From Escherichia phage T2, in the sequence record NC_054931.1: a stretch of DNA of 64,000 bases, one strand, 5' to 3'. The translations under genes and the position numbers were made by a program. The notes below the pieces were generated by a model that was given only the letters and a program-made list of their open reading frames with translations, was not told the origin of the DNA and made no database searches. Shown in pieces: positions 7,506 to 64,000 of this stretch. Each line of letters begins with the position of its first letter. The stretch's first letter is position 1.

Positions 7506-9017
7506 ATGACTGACATTAAAGTACATTTTTATGATTTTAGTCACGTGAGAATTGATTGTGAAGAAAGTACATTTCATGAACTCCGTGATTTCTTTAGCTT
7601 TGAAGCTGATGGGTATCGTTTTAATCCGAAATACAAATATGGCCACTGGGATGGACGAATCCGTCTTTTAGATTATAATCGTCTTCTTCCATTCGGCTTA
7701 GTCGGGCAAATTAAAAAGTTCTGTGATAATTTTGGCTATAAAGCCTGGATTGACCCACAAATTAACGAAAAAGAAGAATTATCAAGAAAAGATTTTGATG
7801 AATGGCTTTCTAAATTAGAAATCTATTCAGGAAATAAAAGAATCGAACCACACTGGTATCAAAAAGATGCAGTGTTCGAAGGATTAGTTAATCGTCGTAG
7901 AATTCTTAATCTTCCAACATCTGCAGGTAAATCTTTAATTCAAGCTTTGCTTGCGCGATATTATTTGGAAAATTATGAAGGTAAAATTCTTATCATTGTT
8001 CCAACAACTGCTTTAACAACTCAGATGGCTGATGACTTTGTTGACTATCGTTTATTCAGTCATGCAATGATAAAGAAAATTGGTGGCGGAGCATCAAAAG
8101 ATGATAAATATAAAAATGATGCACCAGTCGTTGTTGGTACATGGCAAACTGTAGTTAAACAACCGAAAGAATGGTTCTCACAGTTTGGAATGATGATGAA
8201 TGATGAATGCCATCTTGCTACAGGAAAAAGTATTTCATCTATCATATCAGGTTTAAATAACTGCATGTTCAAATTCGGTTTGTCTGGTTCATTACGTGAT
8301 GGCAAAGCTAATATCATGCAGTATGTTGGAATGTTTGGTGAAATATTTAAGCCAGTAACGACTTCTAAATTAATGGAAGATGGACAAGTAACTGAGCTAA
8401 AAATTAATAGTATTTTTCTTCGCTATCCAGATGAGTTCACTACTAAATTAAAGGGAAAAACTTACCAAGAAGAAATAAAAATTATTACTGGGCTCAGTAA
8501 AAGAAATAAATGGATCGCTAAATTAGCTATTAAGCTTGCGCAAAAAGATGAAAACGCTTTTGTCATGTTTAAACATGTATCGCATGGTAAAGCTATTTTC
8601 GATTTAATTAAAAATGAATACGATAAAGTTTATTACGTATCAGGGGAAGTTGATACCGAAACCCGCAATATAATGAAAACCTTAGCTGAAAATGGTAAAG
8701 GAATAATTATAGTAGCTAGTTATGGTGTATTTTCTACTGGTATTTCAGTTAAAAATCTGCATCACGTTGTTTTAGCGCACGGTGTTAAATCAAAAATCAT
8801 TGTATTACAAACAATCGGTCGTGTATTACGTAAGCATGGTTCTAAGACAATAGCAACCGTCTGGGACCTCATAGATGATTGTGGTGTTAAGCCAAAATCT
8901 GCTAATACGAAAAAGAAATATGTTCATTTGAACTATCTTTTAAAACACGGCATTGATCGTATTCAGCGCTACGCAGATGAAAAATTTAATTACGTAATGA
9001 AAACAGTTAATTTATAA
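7506..9017 (+). CDS. uvsW: UvsW recombination/repair helicase (SF2 ATPase)
   Basis: 503-aa ORF with GKS Walker A and DECH Walker B motifs; recognised as T4 UvsW. Confidence 0.9.
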   Translation: MTDIKVHFYDFSHVRIDCEESTFHELRDFFSFEADGYRFNPKYKYGHWDGRIRLLDYNRLLPFGLVGQIKKFCDNFGYKAWIDPQINEKEELSRKDFDEWLSKLEIYSGNKRIEPHWYQKDAVFEGLVNRRRILNLPTSAGKSLIQALLARYYLENYEGKILIIVPTTALTTQMADDFVDYRLFSHAMIKKIGGGASKDDKYKNDAPVVVGTWQTVVKQPKEWFSQFGMMMNDECHLATGKSISSIISGLNNCMFKFGLSGSLRDGKANIMQYVGMFGEIFKPVTTSKLMEDGQVTELKINSIFLRYPDEFTTKLKGKTYQEEIKIITGLSKRNKWIAKLAIKLAQKDENAFVMFKHVSHGKAIFDLIKNEYDKVYYVSGEVDTETRNIMKTLAENGKGIIIVASYGVFSTGISVKNLHHVVLAHGVKSKIIVLQTIGRVLRKHGSKTIATVWDLIDDCGVKPKSANTKKKYVHLNYLLKHGIDRIQRYADEKFNYVMKTVNL

Positions 9018-9031
9018 GGGCTTCGGCCCTT
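9016..9031. other. GC hairpin AAGGGC-TTCG-GCCCTT between uvsW and uvsW.1
   Basis: 16-nt palindromic stem-loop; reverse complement of the hairpin found twice near rIIB. Confidence 0.5.
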
Positions 9032-17891: not shown

Positions 17892-17921
17892 ATTATAACA
17901 CAACATAAGGAACTTGTAAAC
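17892..17921 (-). promoter_or_regulatory. T4-type early promoter (GTTTAC, 18-nt spacer, TATAAT) upstream of alt.-3
   Basis: On - strand GTTTACAAGTTCCTTATGTTGTGTTATAAT; near-identical block upstream of alc. Confidence 0.55.
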
Positions 17922-19978
17922 TACATTTTGAACTTTTTAGACATTCCGTTGATGTTAACCAAAGAAGCTAATATTTGAGAAACTTCGTTTTCCTCTTCTT
18001 TTGATTCTTCTACAAGGAATTGATTAAATCCAGCCATTGGACGAACTTCACCAGTTTCCATTAAATGGTCTCCATCATATACTGATTCTTCTAATTGTTC
18101 AGAAGGAGGAACGATTGTACCTTCGATTAGATACTTGTTATAAGCAGTTTCTTTCATAAAGTACGTACTTACTTTATTAATCTTCAGTAAAATTCCACGC
18201 GGTAGAATAACTTCAGCTTCTGATGGAAATCCTGATAAATGACCTGGAACGATAACTTTGATTCGCTCAGCTCCTTTAATTACCATACCCACGCTAGTTT
18301 CAGCATCTTCATTAGCATATGTAGAATGACTACCCATATGCATCAAATCTTCTGCATCAACGGAACCTTCTCCTTCTCCAGAAAATACTGCACCGGAATC
18401 ATCTAGAGCCATATAGTTTTTACCATGCTCGCCAAAGATATTTGGTTTAAGTGATGTCGATACGAAGTTCTTGAAATAGAACATTTTGTTTTCAATGTTG
18501 TGACGCAAAGTTTTAAAGGTAACTTCTTGTCCGCGATAAAGCGTAGTTCCTGGAGGAAGAACTGAACCTTTAGCGAATGCAGAATCCAACGTCTCGATGT
18601 GCTTAATAGCACGTTCCATATATTCTTCACGGGTAGAATCTGGTTTACCCAAAAGGAACGAGTTCATTTCAACATATGAATCTGCACAATAATCTTCAAT
18701 TACATCAGACTCAGCCTGAGTCAGTCCTTTTGGAGTTACTTCAGTGCTTGCATATTCATATGCCTGGGCAGCAGATTCATTAATCAATTTATAAATGCCA
18801 TTCATGACAAATTGAATAATAACTGTCTTTTCATCTGGCGTAGCTTTAGAACCTTTAACCAAATCATTGATAATTTTCTTAATAACATCAAAGCTATTAG
18901 AAATATTAATATCAGCAAGATCACTTAAAATTTTATCAGTTTTATAATCAAAGAATTCTTTATTCTTTAAATATTCTTGAGAACCTTGATATGTTATATC
19001 GCTCTGTAACTTGATAGATGGATCACGTAAACGTGCATGGGCTAATGCAATATGATTTCGGAAGTTTTCTAGTTCATAATCGCTAGATTTAAAACGAGAA
19101 GCACTTCTCATACCACCGATAGCTCCTTTGCTGAAGTTTGAACCAATCTGAATAACGCCAGAGTTCATTGGTCCTTCTGCTTTATATACCGGAACTTTAG
19201 ATTCAAACTCTTGATATTTCTTGGCAGCGAAGCTATCACCCTGAAGTGAAGCATCGACAGTAGAATATTGAGCTTGTGCTGCTAATCGACGACTAATTTT
19301 AGTTTTCTGAATAACCGCTTGGTCAGTACGTTTATCATTTTCTAAAGCAATAGAAGCAGCAACAGCGACAGCTTTAGGAACAGCATCACCTGTTTTAACA
19401 TCTACATAAACATCACCGACCTTCGATTCAACTTTTGCGAATAACTCAGTTGAAATAGGAGGTACACCTGGAATGTCTTCTAAATTGGCATTTTTACGGT
19501 AAACCATAATATATGCATACTTTTTATCATAGTCCCAGATTTCCTTTAAAAGAACATATCGACCTGCTCCTTTAGTACGTACTAAACGGTCAGCAATAAC
19601 TTGCATTTGACGAGCTGCGCCATTTGTTTTACTTTTTAGTACGCGGAATAAGCATGCGTCGATTTTATACTGTTTCATTGTTTGAAGAGCAGTATCAAAA
19701 ACAGCATTAATGACGCCAATTGGATTTCCACCCAAGTTTCTAAGCTTAACCAGCGATAATTTCTCGTTGACACCTATCATTACGATATGCATCATTTTAT
19801 CGCCTGGCTTAACGTTTTTATTTGTATCACCACCAGAGGTGTATGTACAAAATCTAAATCCAGGAAGCACGCTTTCTTCGCCGGCTTGAATAGCAAAAAT
19901 TTGTGGTATTTTATGCTTAGGATTTAAGTTAACAACCGGCGCCGAAGCGCCGTCAAATAATTCTGTAATAAGTTCCAT
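17921..19978 (-). CDS. Alt-family ADP-ribosyltransferase paralog (full length)
   Basis: 685-aa ORF; N-terminal MELITELFD shared with alt; C-terminal R (LYRGQ), STS (FVSTSL) and ExE (SEAEVILPRG) ART motifs. Confidence 0.8.
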   Translation of the reverse strand: MELITELFDGASAPVVNLNPKHKIPQIFAIQAGEESVLPGFRFCTYTSGGDTNKNVKPGDKMMHIVMIGVNEKLSLVKLRNLGGNPIGVINAVFDTALQTMKQYKIDACLFRVLKSKTNGAARQMQVIADRLVRTKGAGRYVLLKEIWDYDKKYAYIMVYRKNANLEDIPGVPPISTELFAKVESKVGDVYVDVKTGDAVPKAVAVAASIALENDKRTDQAVIQKTKISRRLAAQAQYSTVDASLQGDSFAAKKYQEFESKVPVYKAEGPMNSGVIQIGSNFSKGAIGGMRSASRFKSSDYELENFRNHIALAHARLRDPSIKLQSDITYQGSQEYLKNKEFFDYKTDKILSDLADINISNSFDVIKKIINDLVKGSKATPDEKTVIIQFVMNGIYKLINESAAQAYEYASTEVTPKGLTQAESDVIEDYCADSYVEMNSFLLGKPDSTREEYMERAIKHIETLDSAFAKGSVLPPGTTLYRGQEVTFKTLRHNIENKMFYFKNFVSTSLKPNIFGEHGKNYMALDDSGAVFSGEGEGSVDAEDLMHMGSHSTYANEDAETSVGMVIKGAERIKVIVPGHLSGFPSEAEVILPRGILLKINKVSTYFMKETAYNKYLIEGTIVPPSEQLEESVYDGDHLMETGEVRPMAGFNQFLVEESKEEENEVSQILASLVNINGMSKKFKM

Positions 19979-26271: not shown

Positions 26272-26301
26272 ATACTATCACAAAGGAACCATACTGTAAA
26301 C
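26272..26301 (-). promoter_or_regulatory. T4-type early promoter
   Basis: GTTTAC, 18-nt spacer, TAGTAT on - strand upstream of the 26243 start. Confidence 0.45.
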
Positions 26302-26330
26302 AACTTTATGCAATCTTTGGAAAATAAAAA

Positions 26331-26350
26331 AGGACTCCCGAAGGAGTCCT
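26331..26350 (-). terminator. terminator hairpin AGGACTCC-CGAA-GGAGTCCT (stem-loop part of a PeSL-like cassette)
   Basis: 8-bp stem followed on - strand by a T-rich tract. Confidence 0.55.
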
Positions 26351-26354
26351 CAAC

Positions 26355-41109: not shown

Positions 41110-41139
41110 ATAGTACCATGGAAGGACAAGGATGTAAAC
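41110..41139 (-). promoter_or_regulatory. T4-type early promoter (PeSL-like cassette with hairpin at 41170-41188)
   Basis: GTTTAC, 18-nt spacer, TACTAT, ACAACTATC downstream block; shares about 60 nt with promoters at 58510, 61659 and 62147. Confidence 0.55.
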
Positions 41140-41169
41140 CGTTTTGTGAAAAATTTTTGAAATAAAAAA

Positions 41170-41188
41170 GGGGACCCTAGAGGTCCCC
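41170..41188 (-). terminator. terminator after gene 32
   Basis: GGGGACC-CTAGA-GGTCCCC hairpin followed on - strand by TTTTTTATTT. Confidence 0.65.
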
Positions 41189-41210: not shown

Positions 41211-42119
41211 TTAAAGGTCATTCAAAAGGTCATCCAGGTCCGTGTCATCAGCACTAGATGAACTGCCAGAGCTTGAGCTCATAAAATCATCTTCAGTTTT
41301 TGTATTGAAGTCATCAACATTGAATGCATCCAAATCATCAGCAACTTTATCAGCTTTCTTAGCAGCAGTCGCTGCGGCACCACCCATAGCAGCAGTTCCC
41401 ATAACTTGACTAAACTTAGTGCTCAGTTCTTCGAACGATTTGAATTTATCTTTAGAAGTCATTTCAGAAAGGTCAACCATTTGTTCGAACAGTTCTTTCT
41501 GGAAAGATTCATCGTCAATGTTTGGAATCGCAGATTGATTCAGGAATTTAGATTCGTCGTAGTTACTAAATCCGGAAACTTGTTTAACTTTCAGTACAAA
41601 GTTAGCACCTTCCCACGGACAAGTTACATCAACCGGAGTTTCACCCATTTCAACATCAACTGCAATCATTGCATTGATTTTATCCCAGATTTTCTTACCG
41701 AAACGGTATTTAAATACTTTACCTTCGTTTTCTGGAGCAGCTGGATCTTTTACTACAAGAATGTTAGCCCAGTAAGAAGTTTTACGTTTAACAAGACCGT
41801 ACTCTTTATTGTCAGTGTTGTACAAATCATTTTTACTGATGTACTGACATACTGGACAAGAATCGTAATCACCGTGGGTAGATGAGCAATTTTCGATATA
41901 CCATTTACCGTTTTTCTTGAAACCGTGATTTACAAGAATTGCAAATGGTGCTTGTTCATCATTTTTAGACGGAAGAAAACGAATTACTGCTTGACCGTTA
42001 CCCGCATTATCGAGTTTCAGTTTCCACTCGCCTTTATCTTCAGAAGAAAAACCACCTTTATTTCCAGCCAGTTTAGCCATTTGTGCAGCGAGTTCAGCAG
42101 TAGATTTACGTTTAAACAT
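41211..42119 (-). CDS. 32: single-stranded DNA-binding protein gp32
   Basis: 302-aa [20 protein letters not shown]... with acidic Ser/Asp-rich C-terminus; recognised as T4 gp32. Confidence 0.96.
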
Positions 42120-58509: not shown

Positions 58510-58539
58510 ATAATACCACAGTATGCTTTGGTTGTAAAC
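58510..58539 (-). promoter_or_regulatory. T4-type early promoter upstream of motA (PeSL-like cassette)
   Basis: GTTTAC, 18-nt spacer, TATTAT, ACAACTATCAAC downstream block; A/T-rich upstream. Confidence 0.55.
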
Positions 58540-58571
58540 CGTTTTGTGAAAAAAATTTTAAAATAAAAAAA

Positions 58572-58591
58572 GGGAGAGCCTCGGCTCTCCC
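58572..58591 (-). terminator. terminator hairpin downstream of the 52.1-like ORF
   Basis: GGGAGAGCC/GGCTCTCCC inverted repeat followed on - strand by TTTTTTTATTTT. Confidence 0.6.
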
Positions 58592-61658: not shown

Positions 61659-61688
61659 ATAATACCACAGAGGAACAATCTTGTAAAC
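61659..61688 (-). promoter_or_regulatory. T4-type early promoter
   Basis: GTTTAC, 18-nt spacer, TATTAT on - strand. Confidence 0.5.
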
Positions 61689-61905: not shown

Positions 61906-62112
61906 TCAATAATCCGCTAAAAGATCGACGATTGCATCACGAAGACACTTATTCGCAATACGTTTAAGAGCAATTTCAGTTTCTGGAGCATTTTGAATAA
62001 TCATTGAATTCAATTCAGCCTCAGCAAACTGAAGTTCTTTAACTAATTCAGCTTTATATTTTCCTTGCCCTTTCTTAGCTTTTGCTCGTTTTAGTTCAGC
62101 TGTAGTAAACAT
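61906..62112 (-). CDS. hypothetical protein
   Basis: 68 codons from ATG 62112 (MFTTAELKRAKAKK...) with GGAGAA RBS. Confidence 0.5.
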   Translation of the reverse strand: MFTTAELKRAKAKKGQGKYKAELVKELQFAEAELNSMIIQNAPETEIALKRIANKCLRDAIVDLLADY

Positions 62113-62146
62113 TTTATTCTCCAAATCCGTATCAGTTGATAGTTGT

Positions 62147-62176
62147 ATATTACCACAGTCCTTGTGGTATGTAAAC
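62147..62176 (-). promoter_or_regulatory. T4-type early promoter
   Basis: GTTTAC, 18-nt spacer, TAATAT, ACAACTATCAAC downstream block. Confidence 0.5.
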
Positions 62177-62194
62177 CGTTTTGTGAAAAAATTT

Positions 62195-62752
62195 TTAAAT
62201 GGAAAGATACCATCCGTTGTAGTTGCTTTTTCTTACAACCTTACGAAGGTCTTCTCTATCACCGATGAATTTCGGAGTGTACTGGATGACACCTGGATGA
62301 ATTTCTTTAGTGTTGAATATAATTATACAGTCAGCGACTTGATGATTTAGAATGGGCCCTAGATTTATTCCAGAACCATATGGATACTCTCCGCTGCATC
62401 CGGTTGTTACCGAAATCCATCGTGAGTCAGTTTGATGTGTTTTGACTTCTACACGAAGCCCACAGTATTTTGGATGCGCCAATACATCCCATGCATATGT
62501 ATATGGGTCATTAACATCCTCTTGGCCTTTGTTAACATACCCGCTTAGCCAATCTGCTACAAAAAATTCTGCGTACACAGCGATACGACATCTTTCAATA
62601 ACTTCTGCTTTATCCTGGTTCGGGTTTTGTTTTAAAGAGTATCTTGCTGTATCAGCAATTTTGACCTTCATTTCACTAGTCAAGTCACTGTTCGATAGGG
62701 TAAATGTCGGAATCTGAAATAGTCTCTGTAAACCCGGATTCGTTTTCTGCAT
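62195..62752 (-). CDS. denB: endonuclease IV
   Basis: 185-aa ORF MQKTNPGLQRLFQIPTFTLSNSDL...; recognised as T4 DenB. Confidence 0.9.
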   Translation of the reverse strand: MQKTNPGLQRLFQIPTFTLSNSDLTSEMKVKIADTARYSLKQNPNQDKAEVIERCRIAVYAEFFVADWLSGYVNKGQEDVNDPYTYAWDVLAHPKYCGLRVEVKTHQTDSRWISVTTGCSGEYPYGSGINLGPILNHQVADCIIIFNTKEIHPGVIQYTPKFIGDREDLRKVVRKSNYNGWYLSI

Positions 62753-62815
62753 TGAACTTTCCTTTTACGTCGGAATCACTGATATTCATATAAATCATAA
62801 TTTCTCTTAAAACAA

Positions 62816-62831
62816 AAGGGCCGAAGCCCTT
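62816..62831. repeat. hairpin AAGGGC-CGAA-GCCCTT, copy 1
   Basis: 16-nt palindromic stem-loop identical to 63048-63063; T-rich flank on - strand. Confidence 0.6.
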
Positions 62832-62834
62832 ATT

Positions 62835-63029
62835 TTATTTGAATTGCGCAATTCTTTTCTCTAGACACTCAGCATAAGATTTCATTGAGATAAACTGCGA
62901 AAGTAGCAGTTCTTGCTCAACTGCACTAACCGTTAGAAACTTTGTGCTTTCTAAAAATTTACTCAGTGCATTAATTTTGAGCATTAATTGATCGTATTCT
63001 TCTTTTACTCGTGCTTGATAACCTAACAT
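62835..63029 (-). CDS. hypothetical protein (denB.1 position)
   Basis: 64-aa ORF with AAGGAAAA RBS, bracketed by two identical hairpins. Confidence 0.5.
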   Translation of the reverse strand: MLGYQARVKEEYDQLMLKINALSKFLESTKFLTVSAVEQELLLSQFISMKSYAECLEKRIAQFK

Positions 63030-63047
63030 AATTTTCCTTAATATGAT

Positions 63048-63063
63048 AAGGGCCGAAGCCCTT
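63048..63063. repeat. hairpin AAGGGC-CGAA-GCCCTT, copy 2
   Basis: Identical 16-mer overlapping the rIIB stop codon. Confidence 0.6.
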
Positions 63064-64000
63064 ATTTAAATTGTTCAGTAACGTCTTCAACTACTTCGTA
63101 TTGGCAGGTACGCATTTTAGCATCGTTGTAATCAATCGGAATTGATACTACATCACGCGGATGTACTTTAACTTTTACAACTCGACTGGTTGAACTGCCA
63201 AAGTGACGAATATAAGATTTAGAACACACATGCAGACCACGAGAACAAGTTTGTGTATCATCGTCATTCACACGAGTACGTGGCATTTTAACTACTTTAC
63301 CCGGACTGTTATCAAAGGTGTTTGAGTGACAGTCAAAGTAGTTGTCACGAACTACTTTCCAAGCATAGAAGTAACCATCTTCGGTGATTTCAATATCGTT
63401 TGCTACCAAGAAATCAAAGAGTCGAGATACCGCTTTTTGGCTTGGGTTTTCCAGCAGATTTTCCAAGAACGGAAAATAAAATTCAAAGTTTTCGCCTTTT
63501 TCCATCGAGTCAAGAATACGATCAACCAAACCAGACCGCAATTCAATATTTTGATAGAACAAGCTTCCACCTTCAATTCGAACATCGCCGGAAATATATT
63601 TTTCAACAGCGCGACGAACATTAATTTTTTGCGCAGCTTCTTCCAGCTTATCCGCTACAAGCAGATTAAGAATTTCCTGAAAGTTTGAATGAGTATTAGG
63701 AGTTGCGTTATAAGTTACACCGTCAACAGTAATTGAAATGAATTTTTTAGATGCATTCCAAATAATGTCAGATTTAGCAACTGGAGCAATAACTGCATCG
63801 CTATTAACTTTAACTGTAATATCACCGCTAATAGTAACTTTAGGGCGTTTAGCTTCTTCAGCATTTTTCAAAACACGACGGATTGTGTCAACCGATACAC
63901 CTTGCCAATCAGCCAATTCCTGTTGGGTGTAATTACCACTTGAATACAGTTTAACAATTTCAGCTTGTTCGTTTTTGGTCAGGCATTTAATATTGTACAT
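63062..64000 (-). CDS. rIIB: rIIB protein
   Basis: 312-aa ORF MYNIKCLTKNEQAEIVKLYSSGNYTQQELADWQG...; start codon is the last three bases of the window. Confidence 0.95.
   Translation of the reverse strand: MYNIKCLTKNEQAEIVKLYSSGNYTQQELADWQGVSVDTIRRVLKNAEEAKRPKVTISGDITVKVNSDAVIAPVAKSDIIWNASKKFISITVDGVTYNATPNTHSNFQEILNLLVADKLEEAAQKINVRRAVEKYISGDVRIEGGSLFYQNIELRSGLVDRILDSMEKGENFEFYFPFLENLLENPSQKAVSRLFDFLVANDIEITEDGYFYAWKVVRDNYFDCHSNTFDNSPGKVVKMPRTRVNDDDTQTCSRGLHVCSKSYIRHFGSSTSRVVKVKVHPRDVVSIPIDYNDAKMRTCQYEVVEDVTEQFK

Follow-up and report, generated by a model that had tools for sequence, protein, structure and literature searches.

Identical C(UUCG)G hairpins on either side of denB.1 in phage T2 are probably RNA punctuation rather than ends of a mobile element

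The window analysed here, a stretch of 64,000 nucleotides of the Escherichia phage T2 genome, contains a small gene, denB.1, bracketed by two identical 16-nt hairpins. Our results indicate that the two hairpins are probably RNA punctuation, i.e. standard T-even C(UUCG)G intercistronic hairpins of the sense transcript, and not the ends of a mobile element. The hairpin repeat is real and far from chance, yet it is a textbook feature: the hairpin class, noted for its high stability, has been known since 1988, both sites already stand in terminator lists, and PeSL cassettes were described in 2010 and 2014, and the consequence for biology at large is small. The by-products of the analysis are a picture of the rIIB-denB interval in which the rIIB 3' hairpin is deeply conserved, denB.1 and the second hairpin are optional and the DUF7418 gene is mosaic, together with a few annotation corrections for T2 and T4 and a question that has become cheaply testable, namely whether terminator-only repeats can also mediate cassette indels.

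The rIIB-denB interval and its hairpins

A 1.9-kb query over the locus matched Escherichia phage T2 AP018813.1 at 100% (window position equals record position minus 99815) and about 480 other Tequatrovirus records at 94-97% identity. Every gene of the rIIB-denB interval lies on the minus strand, in the order rIIB, 64-aa ORF, denB, and the features discussed below are as follows.

63062..64000, minus strand: rIIB, 312 aa, from the ORF list; aligns with T4 rIIB
63046..63065, minus strand: hairpin 1, AUAAGGGC-UUCG-GCCCUUAU, with the 16-nt core at 63048-63063
62835..63029, minus strand: denB.1 ortholog, 64 aa, with T4 denB.1 at the matching position; Pfam PF21825
62807..62831, minus strand: hairpin 2, AAGGGC-UUCG-GCCCUU, a stem-loop at 62816-62831 followed by UUUUGUUUU at 62807-62815
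62685..62798, minus strand: 37-aa ORF that begins after hairpin 2 and overlaps the start of denB
62195..62752, minus strand: denB, endonuclease IV, 185 aa, from the ORF list, the annotation and comparison with T4
9016..9031, plus strand: third identical hairpin, overlapping the stop of uvsW (7506..9017, plus strand)

The first-pass annotation had reported exact copies of AAGGGCCGAAGCCCTT at 62816-62831 and 63048-63063, a 64-aa ORF at 62835..63029 between them and the reverse complement of the repeat at 9016-9031, and all of this was borne out, with the ORF on the minus strand. Its description of the copy at 9016 as inverted holds for the DNA only; this copy is on the plus strand because uvsW is, and on the transcript all three copies read UAAGGGCUUCGGCCCUU. 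When up to two mismatches were allowed, the 16-mer had six matches in the window against 0.02 expected, and the three imperfect ones carry paired changes that keep the stem. The two copies flanking denB.1 extend to a 41-nt direct repeat of 78% identity at a spacing of 232, as found by a repeat search.

In the RNA sense both flanking copies read UAAGGGC-UUCG-GCCCUU. The UAA stop codon of rIIB overlaps the 5' arm of hairpin 1, and the transcript runs from rIIB as ...CAA UUU AAA UAA GGGC UUCG GCCC UUAUCAUAUUAAGGAAAAUUAUG to the SD (AAGGA) and AUG of denB.1; in T2 the stem is followed by AUCAUAUU and by no sense-strand U-tract, and hairpin 1 thus lacks the form of an intrinsic terminator. From denB.1 to the next ORF the transcript reads ...CAA UUC AAA UAA AAUAA GGGC UUCG GCCC UUUUGUUUUAAGAGAAAUUAUG, and hairpin 2 with its U-tract UUUUGUUUU has the GC-hairpin-plus-U-tract form of a terminator on the sense strand, for which hairpin 1 was not flagged. 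After the hairpin at 9016 come GGAG and the AUG of a 76-aa downstream ORF. On the plus (antisense) strand, T-rich tails ATTTTATTTG and ATTTAAATTG follow the hairpins (62816-62841 and 63048-63073); hairpin 2 is terminator-like on both strands, and both hairpins could also stop antisense (clockwise) transcription.

By sequence comparison, the bracketed 64-aa ORF is denB.1, a small accessory gene that is fixed in Tequatrovirus. Its product scores 69 bits against Pfam PF21825 (crAss001_48-related; gathering cutoff 24.8, E = 3e-19) and matches PHROG 774, and a sequence search of the PDB returned no solved relative, only a chance match (E = 0.52). The 37-aa ORF after hairpin 2 is what an in-frame internal deletion has left of a DUF7418 (PF24193) gene, namely its first 12 and last 25 residues; slur02 has the intact gene, with 109 aa (L002:1086-1415). 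About 40% of the Tequatrovirus matches listed are longer here by ~214 bp. T4 shares the T2 remnant, unannotated, and fPS-65 has an additional 22-nt deletion in the remnant region. The product names of the T2 record AP018813.1 are unreliable across the window: rIIB is wrongly named 'ribonucleotide reductase ... beta subunit', the ~300-aa gene associated with terminator '32' of UFV13 is a 'hypothetical protein', and the label 'single stranded DNA-binding protein' has been placed on a 754-aa ORF.

Membership in the T-even UUCG hairpin class

A census of UUCG hairpins with stems of at least 4 bp found nine intergenic ones in the window, with GC-rich stems of 6-10 pairs (G-U allowed) and mostly an AAGGG..C 5' arm. 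All nine are at or just 3' of a stop codon, and in all nine the loop is UUCG, never CGAA, in the sense of the upstream gene. This sense orientation and the position at stop codons point to a function at the RNA level rather than at the DNA level. In all three copies of the 16-mer the UUCG loop is closed by C-G on the transcribed strand. According to a review (PMC4371310), C(UUCG)G tetraloop hairpins were first described in T4 mRNA in 1988 by Tuerk et al., and the T2 hairpins resemble these intercistronic hairpins in loop, closing pair, short GC stem, position after the stop codon and sense orientation. We found no essential difference from that class; what is particular here is that two hairpins with an identical stem stand on either side of one gene.

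Both sites have been predicted as terminators in related phages. Table 2 of the UFV13 (vB_EcoM-UFV13) report lists predicted terminators 'denB.1' (CAAATAAATAAGGGCTTCGGCCCTTTTGTTTTAA) and 'rIIB' with the same two sequences at the same positions as the T2 hairpins (PMC5931544), although the 'rIIB' terminator is listed on the opposite strand, where ATTTAAATT comes next, whereas T2 hairpin 1 has no U-tract on the sense strand. The GenBank records of G50 and fPS-65 also carry terminator features at both hairpin sites. Our literature search found no transcript 3'-end data for T2 or T4 and no experimental data on denB.1. The nearest-neighbour energy of the 16-mer is modest (-8.8 kcal/mol), 66-nt windows fold no better than shuffles (z of -0.9 to -1.5), a comparison that says little because the shuffles retain the GC bases and for which covariation is the better substitute, and an Rfam scan of 62100-63300 with E up to 1 returned no family. 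Elsewhere in the window, a minus-strand CGGCGC-UUCG-GCGCCG hairpin (19937-19952) is located just downstream of a 697-aa ORF and 26-41 nt into the 685-aa ORF that follows it (17921..19978), counted from the annotated 5' end of the latter, and the annotated start of the 685-aa ORF may be too far upstream.

From the anatomy of the two hairpins alone, we infer roles in termination, attenuation and stabilisation. Hairpin 1 would most likely be a pause site or a 3'-exonuclease barrier that stabilises the rIIB message, since it has no U-tract in T2, and RNA polymerase would read through it into denB.1. Hairpin 2 may be a leaky intrinsic terminator at which rIIB-denB.1 transcripts stop and which would damp read-through into the nuclease gene denB. 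Neither the promoter scan for early promoters nor the MotA-box scan for middle promoters found one in the right orientation between rIIB and denB, so denB would presumably be reached by read-through and hairpin 2 would have to be leaky. The 16-nt identity of the hairpins is best explained by a very narrow sequence space, made up of a UAA stop, a 4-bp G-rich stem, C-G on the UUCG loop and then U's, to which local copying or gene conversion may have added.

Conservation among the T-evens

rIIB is at least 95% identical in 493 records and denB.1 at least 90% identical in 494; denB.1 is therefore fixed among T-evens and is no variable module there. It had been proposed that the bracketed ORF could be a shuffled module, an idea that finds no support among T-evens, where denB.1 is in essentially all of the ~490 Tequatrovirus records. 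The deeper comparison described below lends it some support, as denB.1 is patchy between genera and its identities are incongruent with those of its neighbour genes. The first-pass annotation had also suggested comparing the denB-rIIB interval and had held that an ORF universally present between non-identical flanks would refute mobility; the ORF is indeed universal among T-evens, but in most of these phages its two flanks match each other as well.

In T4, T4T (resequenced), slur02, fPS-65, G50 and five Tequatroviruses from IMG/VR, denB.1 and the two hairpins stand where they do in T2. The two hairpin copies drift independently, since the loop of hairpin 1 is UUUG in contigs L021 and L022, which retain UUCG in hairpin 2, and the closing pair of hairpin 1 is broken in slur02. 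The T4 reference NC_000866 has one base fewer in each hairpin, GGCTTCGGCCC and GGGCTTCGGCC (L005, ~2440-2465 and ~2220-2245), and differs from T4T HM137666 (L187) by one codon in denB.1. The stems are full in T4T and all relatives, and the missing bases of the T4 reference are probably old gel-compression errors at GC hairpins.

Another small ORF, close by, does vary among these phages. The 68-aa ORF cassette at 61906-62112 (minus strand), without a match in Pfam, is present in T2, slur02 and G50 and absent from T4 and fPS-65. Its insertion point is precisely a start codon, and it is bordered by direct repeats, GAGAATAAAATG and TTGAGTAAAATG, with ..TAAAATG repeated at the two start codons; it is an ORF-precise indel via start-region microhomology, with no hairpin involved.

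Comparison between genera

Of the 14 genus-level lineages sampled, 13 have a C(UUCG)G hairpin at 0-12 nt past the stop of rIIB, including Tequatro-, Dhaka-, Gapriver-, Kanagawa-, Marfa-, Winkler-, Mosig-, Jiaoda-, Karam- and Biquartavirus and Yersinia phage MHG19; the exception is Krischvirus, in which no rIIB 3' hairpin was found. The stems read GGGC, GGAGGC, GGGGC, GGGGAC, GGAGAC, GGAGCC, GGGCC or GGCCCUC across the lineages, and the loop is almost invariant. In a loop-anchored alignment, 96% of cells are paired, a percentage inflated by anchoring on hairpins that we had picked ourselves, and five of the six stem pairs change on both sides; none of 500 shuffles reached the observed values and no slid register came close. 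The compensatory stem changes of hairpin 1 across the 14 lineages are, in this hand-anchored alignment, those of a structure maintained by selection, and to judge from these sequences the rIIB 3' hairpin is ancient.

What follows the hairpin varies. denB.1 comes next in Tequatro-, Dhaka-, Gapriver-, Kanagawa-, Marfa- and Winklervirus. Mosig-, Jiaoda-, Karam- and Biquartavirus and MHG19 have no denB.1, and in them a single hairpin joins rIIB directly to the next gene. This orthologous hairpin of the genera without denB.1 has a sense-strand U-tract, unlike T2 hairpin 1. In the four genera a gene of ~95-110 aa comes straight after the hairpin, its U-run and an SD, and denB follows that gene; in MHG19 the next gene is unrelated. 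The ~95-110-aa gene was identified as DUF7418 (PF24193) in the phages tested, LF82-7 and, for Tequatrovirus, slur02, and its product shares a MI(N/H)P start in Jiaoda- and Karamvirus. Hairpin 2, with its U-tract, is confined to Tequatrovirus and Winkler-like phages, and the Winkler-like phages have different stems in hairpins 1 and 2; the distant Winkler-like contig L043 has the exact AAGGGC-UUCG-GCCCUU after denB.1 and a different rIIB hairpin.

On a neighbour-joining tree of rIIB the distribution of denB.1 is patchy, with Tequatrovirus (denB.1 present) and Mosigvirus (absent) as sisters at 71% bootstrap and Marfavirus (present) and Jiaodavirus (absent) as sisters at 100%. Marfa- and Kanagawavirus are 78-84% identical in denB.1, 63-64% in rIIB and 42% in denB. 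MAFFT aligned the single hairpin of the genomes lacking denB.1 to either hairpin 1 or hairpin 2, which is the appearance of an indel between repeats. Two allelic types of the DUF7418 gene, ..NLRG.H...KLVKHPGDVHY.. and ..LHGNHH...LYCND.., are found between denB.1 and denB, with a distribution at odds with the rIIB tree (L006-L011, L014-L016, L026-L033), and both types occur in the close Dhaka-like contigs L026-L030. denB is mosaic as well, with SP18 and IME08 49% identical in denB and 78% in rIIB.

Early promoters and PeSL-type units

Promoters of the early type, some of them preceded by a hairpin, occur at the following places in the window.

26272..26351, minus strand: PeSL-type unit with GAGGACUCC-UUCG-GGAGUCCUU hairpin, U-run and GTTTAC..TAGTAT early promoter
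41110..41188, minus strand: PeSL-type unit with GGGGACC..GGUCCCC hairpin, U-run and early promoter
58510..58591, minus strand: PeSL-type unit with GGGAGAGC-CGAG-GCUCUCCC hairpin, U-run and early promoter, upstream of motA
61659..61688, minus strand: early-type promoter with no upstream hairpin
62147..62176, minus strand: early-type promoter with no hairpin, just 3' of denB, predicted to drive the 68-aa ORF cassette 61906..62112

The GC hairpin, U-run and GTTTAC...TAnnAT promoter that had been noted at 26272-26351, 41110-41188 and 58510-58591 are all present, and GTTTAC-N16-18-TANNAT has nine matches in the window, all on the minus strand, against 0.72 expected. Four promoters had been said to share about 60 nt; those at 41110, 58510 and 62147 do share 52-57 of 70 aligned positions, but for the one at 61659 the figure is no more than 41-47 of 70. 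The hairpin and U-run at 41110..41188 lie downstream of a 302-aa ORF (41211..42119), and their counterpart in UFV13 is terminator '32' (Table 2, PMC5931544).

A PeSL (promoter-early stem-loop) consists of an AT-rich stretch, a stem-loop, a sigma70-like early promoter (TTTACW-N17-TAYWAT in T4/PST), an SD and an ATG (Comeau 2014, PMC4122927). PeSLs flank ORFs that differ between close relatives, and recombination between units yields mini-circles (PMC2839356, PMC4122927); the crossovers were mapped to the stretch that separates the SD or ATG from the -10 element (Arbiol 2010, PMC2839356), and homology of less than 50 bp is enough for recombination in T4 (PMC2839356). The ndd.4/.5 exchange next door has been ascribed to PeSLs (Comeau 2014, PMC4122927). 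The earlier PeSL reading is sound for the units at ~26.3, 41.1 and 58.5 kb, which fit the published definition, and does not extend to denB.1: TTTACW-N17-TAYWAT is absent from 62780-63100, and the flanks of denB.1 are not PeSLs because neither has a promoter. They resemble PeSLs in having a stem-loop, an SD and an ATG, in lying in a plastic early region and in being repeated units around a small ORF, and differ from them in the missing promoter and in the lack of extended AT-rich/-35/-10 homology. Moreover, PeSL-flanked ORFs vary among close relatives, whereas denB.1 varies between genera only.

Origin of the repeat

The exact 16-mer was found in at least 120 IMG/VR stretches, against 7 for a non-folding control of the same composition. 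Its contexts are mostly unrelated contigs; a stop triplet lies just upstream in 116 of the 124 occurrences listed and a U-run is present at 56 of the 124, with an SD and ATG at many others. Such a spread over unrelated contigs means that identity can arise by convergence, and convergence on this minimal 16-nt hairpin is common. The flank similarity of the two T2 copies gives a summed score of 19, which is reached by only 1-3 of 123 unrelated occurrences listed, and this likeness of the flanks, together with the 41-nt repeat at 78%, is a hint that the copies have a common origin and did not arise by convergence alone. A chance repeat has essentially no probability left and is already refuted by the six matches against 0.02 expected and by the conservation of the sites at orthologous positions. 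A palindrome acting in the DNA, whether bound by a protein, extruded as a cruciform or mobile in the manner of REP/MITE elements, would account for the presence of a perfect 6-bp inverted repeat at several intergenic sites, but we regard it as very improbable: the loop follows the transcribed strand in nine of nine cases, which a symmetric DNA site does not require, the stems covary across genera while the loop stays constant, and no transposase or target duplication is associated. The REP/MITE-like form was rejected because of the strict sense orientation.

Two further readings concern where the second hairpin, or the gene, came from. In one, the hairpin-SD-ATG unit is a promoter-less analogue of a PeSL and serves the recombination system of the phage as a short homology patch by which denB.1 was inserted, or can be excised, at the junction of rIIB and the DUF7418 gene. 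This concerns origin and is compatible with an RNA function of the hairpins; we hold it as tentative and on balance doubtful. It would explain why denB.1 is patchy on the rIIB tree (Tequatro against Mosig, Marfa against Jiaoda), why genomes without it have a single hairpin, U-run and SD before the DUF7418 gene exactly as recombination between hairpins 1 and 2 predicts, why MAFFT places that single hairpin on either copy, and why denB.1 of Marfa- and Kanagawavirus is more alike than the adjoining genes; flank similarity marginally above the null, the position of PeSL crossovers and the short homology that suffices in T4 (PMC2839356) also agree with it. Against it stand the absence of any presence/absence polymorphism of denB.1 in ~490 Tequatroviruses, the four genera in which denB.1 is accompanied by one hairpin and abuts or overlaps the next gene, the Winklervirus hairpins that differ from each other, the other ORF-precise indels of the interval that use start-codon microhomology and no hairpin, the homologs of denB.1 outside T4-like phages that lack such hairpins, and a homology of 16 to 41 nt, which is short. 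In the other reading, which we consider unlikely, the ORF is immobile and hairpin 2 arose from hairpin 1 by lineage-specific local copying, or gene conversion has homogenised them. Hairpin 2 is missing in Dhaka-, Gapriver-, Kanagawa- and Marfavirus, relative to whose TAAAATGATT junction Tequatrovirus has ~35 nt more (hairpin, U-tract, SD), and in Tequatrovirus only do both upstream genes end in ...QFK-UAA; but the copies drift independently in L021/L022 and slur02, and the identical 16-mer also occurs after uvsW and in many unrelated phages.

RNA punctuation remains the reading that we prefer for the hairpins themselves. Since denB.1 is patchy between genera and the indels have their edges at the hairpins, these may long ago have mediated a gain or loss of the gene; over deeper time a hairpin-bounded event of this kind is plausible, if hardly probable. 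Promoter-less hairpin-SD-ATG units might even, like PeSLs, be recombination linkers of the Tevenvirinae, with the rIIB hairpin as a docking point for denB.1, Tequatrovirus as the two-hairpin intermediate and Mosigvirus as the excised state; we think this improbable, but if true, denB.1 would have been repeatedly gained, lost or exchanged between genera.

The ...QFK-UAA endings that rIIB and denB.1 share in Tequatrovirus only were rejected as proof of duplication, as F-stop endings are ancestral in both genes (TEQF* in rIIB of SP18, RF* in denB.1 of Kanagawa and Marfa). Repeated copies of the 16-mer were also seen within unrelated contigs: L109 has two copies 344 bp apart, and L116 (IMGVR_UViG_3300021425_000182) has three in 1.2 kb (39-54, 704-719 and 1181-1196) with common extended flanks, ACTCTTAAAAACAA...hairpin...TTTTTAA. 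The segments between the L116 copies, of ~460-650 nt, have room for no more than one small gene each, and a hairpin layout like that of denB.1 thus occurs in another phage group as well.
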